The notes under the pieces are model-generated. The model saw nothing but the letters and a program-made list of their open reading frames with translations. It made no database searches and was not told the origin of the DNA. From sequence record PQ438393.1: DNA of 64,000 nt; one strand, 5' to 3'. Positions within the stretch are counted from its first letter, which is position 1. Each line of letters begins with the position of its first letter. Made by a program: the position numbers and the translations under genes. Of this stretch, positions 55,518-55,622 are shown piece after piece. The DNA comes from Escherichia phage vB_Eco_J-01.

Positions 55518-55622
55518 AAACCCTCCTGTGTGGCGTGGCTTTGCCTAAGCGCCGAAGGCGCGGATCAAATATAAGCTGAATTTATTACGCCCAGGTAGCC
55601 AGGGCGCATAAATATCAGAAAT

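Follow-up and report, generated by a model that had tools for sequence, protein, structure and literature searches.

Two conserved GC-rich hairpins between the gp026 and gp027 homologs of a Justusliebigvirus coliphage, a possible intercistronic stem-loop pair of an early operon

The locus and its flanking genes

The window analysed here is a 64,000-nucleotide stretch of Escherichia phage vB_Eco_J-01 (record PQ438393.1), numbered from its first letter. Its segment 54900-56200 is found in 55 phage genomes, with an identity of 95-99%, and all matches whose taxonomy line was checked belong to the genus Justusliebigvirus (phi92-like, subfamily Stephanstirmvirinae). The phi92 record and the window are the reverse complement of each other. 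The gap considered, 55518-55622, measures 105 nt and separates homologs of phi92 gp026 and gp027; the original prediction had placed it between two open reading frames, 55107-55517 and 55623-55871, and both are indeed found, on the minus strand. Since the flanking genes are on this strand, the letters quoted in that prediction must be reverse-complemented to give the relevant RNA. The features, in the order of transcription, are the following.

55623-55871, minus strand: gp026 homolog, upstream cistron, 82 aa (ORF list and phi92 annotation)
55576-55618, minus strand: extended hairpin 1, CUGA-U-AUUUAUGCGCCC-U-GG-CUA-CC-U-GGGCGU-A-AUAAAUUCAG
55588-55607, minus strand: GC-rich core of hairpin 1, GCGCCCUGGCUACCUGGGCG, the part described originally
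55562-55575, minus strand: AU-rich linker CUUAUAUUUGAUCC between the hairpins (from the sequence and the promoter scans)
55549-55561, minus strand: hairpin 2, GCGCC-UUC-GGCGC, 13 nt with 5 G-C pairs and a 3-nt loop
55528-55548, minus strand: GC-rich 3' tail of the gap, UUAGGCAAAGCCACGCCACAC (from the folds)
55522-55527, minus strand: Shine-Dalgarno (SD) sequence AGGAGG of the gp027-like cistron (from the sequence; RBS annotated in phi92)
55107-55517, minus strand: gp027 homolog, downstream cistron, 136 aa (ORF list)

The gp026-like frame ends with the stop codon TAA at 55625-55623, and its protein belongs to PHROG 25653 (function unknown), with homologs confined by tblastn to Justusliebigvirus. 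The gp027-like frame starts with ATG at 55517-55515; its protein belongs to PHROG 14510 (function unknown), and homologs at 30-50% identity extend to further Stephanstirmvirinae and to a T5-like phage. The two ORFs share the same frame (55515-55871), so that read-through or frameshifting from one to the other was considered and rejected: a TAA, 25 codons, a TAG and 9 codons intervene (frames read by eye), none of the 16 phage tRNAs is a suppressor, and no slippery site stands in register. As no suppressor tRNA is encoded, we take the shared frame as a coincidence.

The gap lies among tightly packed small minus-strand genes, a run that starts near 52.6 kb, continues up to the window's end and forms part of the long block of early genes in these phages. 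Their orientation and packing place it inside a minus-strand operon. On the upstream side the closest sigma-70 consensus promoter, TTGACA-17-TAGTAT, stands at 57073-57045, and on the downstream side the first canonical terminator is met at 52866-52846. Two further good sigma-70 matches occur on the minus strand inside the gp027-like gene, at 55180-55152 and 55374-55345, respectively TTGACA-17-GATAAT with an upstream TG (11/12) and TTTACA-18-TAGAAT (10/12). From there the genes downstream could be transcribed by internal promoters. The same operon holds a second long gap, of 207 nt (56350-56556, minus strand), AT-rich unlike the GC-rich one studied here, with an AU-rich hairpin at 56491-56473 and a possible 44-aa ORF at 56353-56487.

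The element described below is unannotated in the annotated records inspected and absent from Rfam.

Anatomy of the gap

On the coding strand the 5' part of the gap reads UAA-auuu-CUGA-u-AUUUAUGCGCCC-u-GG-cua-CC-u-GGGCGU-a-AUAAAUUCAG, and the 3' part, following AUAAAUUCAG, reads cuuauauuugaucc-GCGCC-uuc-GGCGC-uuaggcaaagccacgccacac-AGGAGG-guuu-AUG. Both hairpins announced on the plus strand are present, gcgcc-gaa-ggcgc at 55549-55561 (our hairpin 2) and cgccc-aggtagcca-gggcg at 55588-55606 (our hairpin 1). The latter is however longer than described, as its AT-rich flanks extend it to 43 nt: it forms 18 bp with one U.U mismatch, two bulges (U55614 and A55586) and the wobble pair G55607.U55587, and begins 4 nt past the gp026 stop codon. 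From hairpin 2 to AGGAGG-GTTT-ATG the distance is 21 nt; the short motif CCACA(C/T)AGG precedes the SD, which is AGGAGA in most relatives.

The unusual GC content of this stretch, which had first drawn attention to it, is borne out: the best 80 nt of the gap reach 0.56, versus 0.37 for the whole window. Four clusters attain this value in the 64 kb, the other three all inside the tRNA gene cluster. That cluster (10391-13136, minus strand) comprises 16 tRNA genes according to ARAGORN, 14 of them above the Rfam threshold, and is interspersed with strong sigma-70-type promoters, e.g. at 12926-12898, 12786-12757 and 13469-13440. Another very GC-rich spot lies at 16796-16838 (minus strand), in the divergent intergenic region 16582-16990; there a promoter, TTGACA-N17-TACCCT, is directly followed by the hairpin CCCCCGAAAAACGCCGAGCGCAGCGAGGGGG and a U-rich tail. 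Counts of CCWGG, GCGC and GATC motifs are unremarkable.

Folding of the two hairpins

The extended hairpin 1 folds in the sense orientation at -18.6 kcal/mol (z = -4.57), a value that none of 200 dinucleotide shuffles equalled; its core by itself reaches -10.1 kcal/mol. The antisense strand folds less well (-15.4 kcal/mol), because the G.U pair becomes C.A there. Hairpin 2 is more modest: -7.1 kcal/mol for the 13-mer, and -8.5 kcal/mol (z = -2.9) for a 16-nt fold including one or two flanking bases. The fold of the whole gap has a z of -2.15. Within a context of 181 nt the ensemble is dominated by the two hairpins: the arms of the hairpin 1 core are more than 99% paired, and hairpin 2 has a pair probability of 0.89.

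The minimum free energy (MFE) structure of hairpin 2 is a UUC triloop closed by 5 bp. A C(UUCG)G tetraloop was considered, as the sequence CUUCGG is present, but the next pair in that register would be C-C. True C(UUCG)G hairpins are found in the terminator 52846-52866 and in a hairpin of a sister clade described below.

The MFE fold also pairs the 3' tail of the gap with the SD and the AUG of gp027, leaving the SD an unpaired probability of 0.36. Sequestration of the SD by GGCAAAGCCACGCC, predicted in two folds, was considered as a main explanation of the element and set aside. Its z of -0.8 is no better than that of shuffles, and the AGGAGA form of the SD, the commonest natural variant, breaks one predicted pair without any compensating change; for these two reasons we do not rely on it. 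The same pairing returns in one version of a broader proposal, that of a genus-specific cis-regulatory RNA acting either by a put-like resistance of E. coli RNA polymerase to termination over the remainder of the early operon, or as a switch coupling gp027 translation to the end of gp026 translation, 4 nt before hairpin 1. The switch could use alternative GCGCC/GGCGC pairings together with the predicted sequestration of the gp027 SD. We consider this proposal, in either version, very improbable.

Terminator, promoter and known-RNA searches

The suggestion that the hairpins form a tandem terminator is not supported: no U-tract follows them on either strand, and a consensus terminator scan finds nothing in the gap. 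We further computed d-scores with a formula of the d'Aubenton-Carafa type, applied with ViennaRNA energies. In the sense orientation they are -21 for the core of hairpin 1, -22 for its extended form and -11 for hairpin 2; in antisense hairpin 1 falls to between -32 and -47, and hairpin 2 to -33. Ten terminators of the window, built of an A-tract, a GC hairpin and a T-tract, served as comparison and score from +5 to +46. The tails examined for a U-tract, UAAUAAAUU, CUUAUAUUU and UUAGGCAAA, yield no positive score.

These scores bear also on a milder version of termination, in which the hairpins would act as leaky attenuators or pause sites, E. coli RNA polymerase partially terminating or pausing there and so lowering the expression of gp027 and of the downstream genes. 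After the extended hairpin 1 comes CUUAUAUUU, where 6 of 9 nt are U, and the arms GCGCCC, GGGCG, CGCGCC, GGCGC and ACGCC, as read from the sequence, could pair alternatively. The base of the extended stem is however AU-rich, and what follows the GC core is UAAUAAAU. As for the alternative pairings, when the 5' arm of hairpin 1 is blocked, hairpin 2 still forms instead of an alternative structure, and the blocked fold (-32.9 kcal/mol) is 14 kcal/mol less stable than the unconstrained one (-46.9 kcal/mol). Besides, the gap offers no leader peptide or other sensor. A hairpin of terminator class is found at the same junction in a sister clade (d = +21.5, see below), a precedent for transcriptional punctuation at this position. 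On balance attenuation or pausing looks rather unlikely.

No sigma-70 promoter was found in 55518-55622, on either strand, by a consensus scan or by a looser one accepting at least 5/6 matches in the -35 hexamer, at least 4/6 in the -10 hexamer and a spacer of 16-18. The linker does contain TTGATC, a weak -35-like hexamer directly before hairpin 2; at 16-18 nt after it stand AGGCAA, GGCAAA and GCAAAG, and the A2/T6 of a -10 hexamer is missing from all three. Upstream of the late genes sigma-70-type sites alone were seen, so that there is no phage-specific promoter motif to search for; the same conclusion was reached for rV5 (PMC3606486). Our literature search found no transcriptome and no promoter or terminator map for Stephanstirmvirinae.

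The original prediction had also evoked a small structured RNA. The support is limited to a structured stretch within an mRNA; the signs of a separate gene are missing. Over the whole window tRNAs alone pass the gathering thresholds of Rfam (release 15), and within the gap, at E <= 10, the single match is a partial one of 13.7 bits between hairpin 2 and Acido-Lenti-1, whose gathering score is 37. ARAGORN and Rfam detect no tRNA or tmRNA in the gap, all 16 tRNAs being at 10.4-13.1 kb. Two adjacent conserved hairpins in an early operon, with a GC content as high as that of tRNA genes, might well evoke a free-standing small RNA gene, or else a cis-acting RNA modifying RNA polymerase in the manner of put-like processive antitermination. 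A gene of its own would lack a promoter and a terminator on both strands, a meaningful Rfam match and a tRNA-like fold, and the element is single copy. A put-like RNA would find no canonical terminator to overcome from the gap to the end of the operon, where the scan shows a weak, tail-less terminator-like site alone, at 54825-54811. Either form seems to us extremely improbable.

Copy number and origin

Each hairpin motif occurs once in the window, even with up to 2-3 mismatches allowed (up to 3 for the core). Searched with a covariance model of the element, neither the window nor a close relative, phage outra (MN850645.1), yields a further copy; the search covered outra over 1-50000 and 100001-145482, i.e. 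95 kb or about two thirds of that genome. By blastn at E <= 1, no match to the gap exists in 5,426 complete E. coli genomes, and among phages the gap DNA matches in Justusliebigvirus alone. A search of 596 Gb of prokaryote genomes returned the exact 20-nt core of hairpin 1 four times. Its carriers, MAGs and one Pseudomonas, are unrelated and GC-rich, and we take these four matches as chance.

More distant copies were sought by DNA search, by tblastn with both flanking proteins, by a word-indexed protein search and by a structured DNA pattern in IMG/VR. Relatives fall either at 94% identity or above or at 50% or below, the latter with an unrelated cassette or no gap at all, and no intermediate was detected in IMG/VR or in metagenomes, both scanned with a protein as anchor.

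Conservation within the genus

The gap is 96-100% identical in all 55 Justusliebigvirus genomes, and at least 99% identical in 38 of them. We aligned 14 genomes over 1.1 kb and counted 6 variable columns out of 106 in the gap, versus 44 out of 218 at the third-codon positions of the flanking genes (Fisher p = 0.0005); these genes have 9-11% of variable columns overall and 18-21% at third-codon positions. As eight of the 14 genomes were picked for having the most divergent gaps, the comparison is conservative. Conservation in related phages, proposed as a check on the element, is thus observed, and the gap varies less than synonymous-type sites do.

The six variable sites avoid disrupting the stems. 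They are the bulged U55614; G55607, where phage SD2 replaces the G.U pair by A-U and so keeps it; the first base past hairpin 1; a 1-nt insertion in the linker, which altogether holds two of the six columns; one base before the SD; and the last base of the SD. Every stem pair is kept, and hairpin 2 is invariant in all genomes examined. Phage cardinal (PQ567651.1, 254-448) has a disrupted or shortened gp026 ORF, which tblastn recovers in two pieces at 79% identity; the gap is kept there, with one base different, outside both stems.

Of the two structural checks suggested for the element, structure prediction gave the z of hairpin 1 quoted above, and the covariance search brought neither covariation nor a second copy: 22 of the 23 pairs are invariant, the last shows the single change of G.U to A-U, and all copies are at least 96% identical, so that covariation speaks neither for nor against an RNA structure. 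Given this lack of covariation, the conservation could equally reflect a role at the DNA level.

Such a role, in line with the protein-binding site evoked in the original prediction, would be that of an operator bound by a phage or host protein, for example by the neighbouring small proteins. Both elements are indeed double-stranded DNA palindromes, GCGCC-N3-GGCGC and, with one mismatch, CGCCCAGG-N3-CCAGGGCG; their strict conservation without covariation suits an operator, and the phi92 and BASEL records label gp026 and gp027 putative transcription regulators. These labels are however unsupported: neither protein has a significant Pfam match, their sole PHROGs carry no assigned function, and a PDB sequence search with gp027 returned no match. 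As arm length and spacing differ between the two palindromes, they are not two copies of one operator. The gap, besides, contains no promoter to control, an AU-extended inverted repeat of 43 nt suits a single strand that folds better than an operator bound by a dimer, and the one change seen in a stem goes from G.U to A-U. We regard an operator as quite unlikely.

Four records of 146 kb (MG065639, MG065645, MG065656 and MG065689) are labelled 'Campylobacter phage', with C. jejuni as host. Over the 1.3 kb searched they share about 98% identity with this coliphage genus, and 100% in the gap; their host labels look doubtful.

Sister clades and the mosaic junction

The clade of phiWec190, phiWec181 and PsgM04F has a gp027 homolog with 47-50% amino acid identity, and the genes on either side of it are unrelated to those of the window. 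The 61-nt gap upstream of this homolog reads TAA-tca-TTGACA-c-CCTCTTCGGAGG-gtgt-TATTGT-ttgtgc... Within it, TTGACA-c-CCTCTTCGGAGGgtgt-TATTGT forms a sigma-70 promoter with a 17-nt spacer, and this spacer accommodates a terminator hairpin with a C(UUCG)G loop and a U-rich tail (d = +21.5). Such a promoter/terminator composite is the architecture of the promoter-early stem-loop (PeSL) cassettes of T4-like phages (Arbiol et al. 2010, PMC2839356). We detected no nucleotide homology between this cassette and the gap of the window.

Because the sister clade carries an unrelated cassette at the same position, together with different neighbouring genes, the gap sits at a mosaic junction where lineages carry different spacers, the present one being genus-specific. 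Other gp027 homologs have still less upstream: phAPEC8 has a gap of 18 nt and Citrobacter phage Tr1 one of 8 nt, both devoid of hairpin, so that gp027 expression does not, as a rule, require the element.

A synteny break of this kind might also leave debris, and the hairpins could be the functionless, decaying remnant of a PeSL-like promoter/terminator cassette at a recombination junction. In this direction, the gp027 gene is shared with the phiWec190/phiWec181/PsgM04F clade whose own spacer, at the same position, is a PeSL-type promoter and hairpin, and the TTGATC of the linker stands directly before hairpin 2 with its similar CTTCGG loop region. Decay is nevertheless hard to reconcile with a gap that is intact in 55 of 55 genomes and more conserved than the third-codon sites of its neighbours (p = 0.0005); moreover the sister cassette shows no detectable homology to the gap and has no counterpart of hairpin 1. 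A remnant is, to our mind, unlikely.

Hairpin cassettes elsewhere in the lineage

In phage outra at least 12 immediate-early gaps (1935-11731, plus strand) contain a repeated cassette of about 80 nt, unannotated there. It is built as TTGACA-N17-TAnnnT-N4-CACATAGG-GCGGGAAATGGTTTCCCGCC-RBS, that is, a strong sigma-70 promoter, GGCGGGAAAUGGUUUCCCGCC and an RBS, and its hairpin, GC-rich and without U-tract, is often exactly GGCGGGAAATGGTTTCCCGCC. The family is PeSL-like, its stem-loop being placed in the 5' UTR. Three exact cassette hairpins score d = -15 to -22, in the same class as the hairpins of the gap.

The order sigma-70-like promoter, GC-rich hairpin, RBS and ATG recurs in the window as well, at 28893-28941, 31091-31150, 25357-25410 and 50660-50726 on the plus strand and at 6785-6723 on the minus strand; some of these hairpins are U-tailed (terminator-class) and some are not. 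From these layouts in outra and in the window, tail-less GC hairpins in untranslated mRNA are normal for this phage. The element of the gap is a singular instance, promoter-less, with two hairpins, and set between two cistrons.

Discussion

The two hairpins exist, are thermodynamically exceptional and constrained, and lie within a transcription unit without features of a terminator or of a promoter. We tentatively propose, with a probability of about 0.4, that they are intercistronic RNA stem-loops of a polycistronic early transcript which set the stability or the processing of the mRNA. The active form would then be the RNA, and the better fold of the sense strand points this way, as does the z of hairpin 1 (-4.6). 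The position of the gap inside the minus-strand operon, the negative d-scores against the positive ones of the real terminators of the window, and the habit of this lineage of keeping tail-less GC-rich hairpins in untranslated mRNA all count in its favour. So do the constraint on the gap (p = 0.0005), the intact stem pairs, and the gap kept in cardinal in spite of a disrupted gp026 ORF.

On this proposal the hairpins would be transcribed without ending transcription, and would act post-transcriptionally as mRNA punctuation. Stable hairpins may block 3'-to-5' exonucleases and in this way protect the upstream segment; the long, imperfect hairpin 1 might also be a processing site for a double-strand-specific, RNase III-type enzyme, which would give the gp027 segment a structured 5' end. 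Either effect would allow expression on the two sides of the mosaic junction to be set independently.

Several observations weigh on the other side of a role in stability or processing. With 22 of 23 pairs that never vary, the stems offer no covariation, and phAPEC8 and Tr1 express their gp027 homolog from hairpin-free gaps. RNase III substrates span some two turns of double-stranded RNA helix and often contain an internal loop; hairpin 1, with some 19 stacked positions (18 bp plus one mismatch, and two bulges), is borderline in this respect. Finally a ribosome that ends translation of gp026 does so 4 nt before hairpin 1, and would open its AU-rich lower stem.

If confirmed, the element would be a further example of mRNA punctuation after transcription in the early operon of a phage, and would provide a usable compact, tail-less pair of stabilisers or insulators from a genus of therapeutic phages. 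The differing cassettes at the mosaic junction bear on the way regulatory spacers, at gene-shuffling boundaries, travel with genes or are replaced. A specialist would find nothing surprising in all this. Of more use as a by-product is the repeated promoter and 5'-UTR hairpin cassette of the immediate-early region, situated beyond the window, which may deserve an analysis of its own, for recombination between its copies and for the role of its 5' hairpins.

Comparison with known systems

The REP/BIME elements of E. coli and the intercistronic hairpins of T4 are stem-loops that stabilise upstream mRNA segments. Like them, the gap contains paired GC-rich imperfect palindromes, without U-tract, just past a stop codon. 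REP/BIME is however a dispersed family of many copies, whereas the gap element is single copy and has no sequence similarity in E. coli; and unlike the C(UUCG)G hairpin of T4 type, hairpin 2 has its stable register as a UUC triloop. In T7, five RNase III processing hairpins separate early genes. The resemblance here is that of a long, imperfect and bulged hairpin between early cistrons of a coliphage; there is no resemblance in sequence, and the hairpin of the gap, of about 18 bp, is unique in its region.

With intrinsic terminators the gap shares a stable, intergenic, GC-rich stem-loop; those of the window itself differ, being made of an A-tract, a GGGGC/CCCGC hairpin and a T-tract. The PeSL cassettes of T4-like phages (Arbiol et al. 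2010, PMC2839356; Comeau et al. 2014, PMC4122927) are comparable by their intergenic stem-loop upstream of an SD and a start codon, in an early region rich in small genes without known function and at a mosaic junction, but they have a sigma-70 promoter, a stem-loop of terminator class and a motif repeated and dispersed over hyperplastic regions; the gap has no such promoter, its hairpins are not of that class, and its element is single copy in the sequence searched. The outra immediate-early cassette differs from the gap by its hairpin sequences, by its promoter and by its single hairpin instead of two, and the covariance model of the gap element does not detect it; both nevertheless place a tail-less GC-rich hairpin shortly before the RBS, and CCACA(C/T)AGG before the SD. 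The kind of feature is thus a familiar one, an intercistronic pair of stem-loops in a phage early operon, ordinary for phages.
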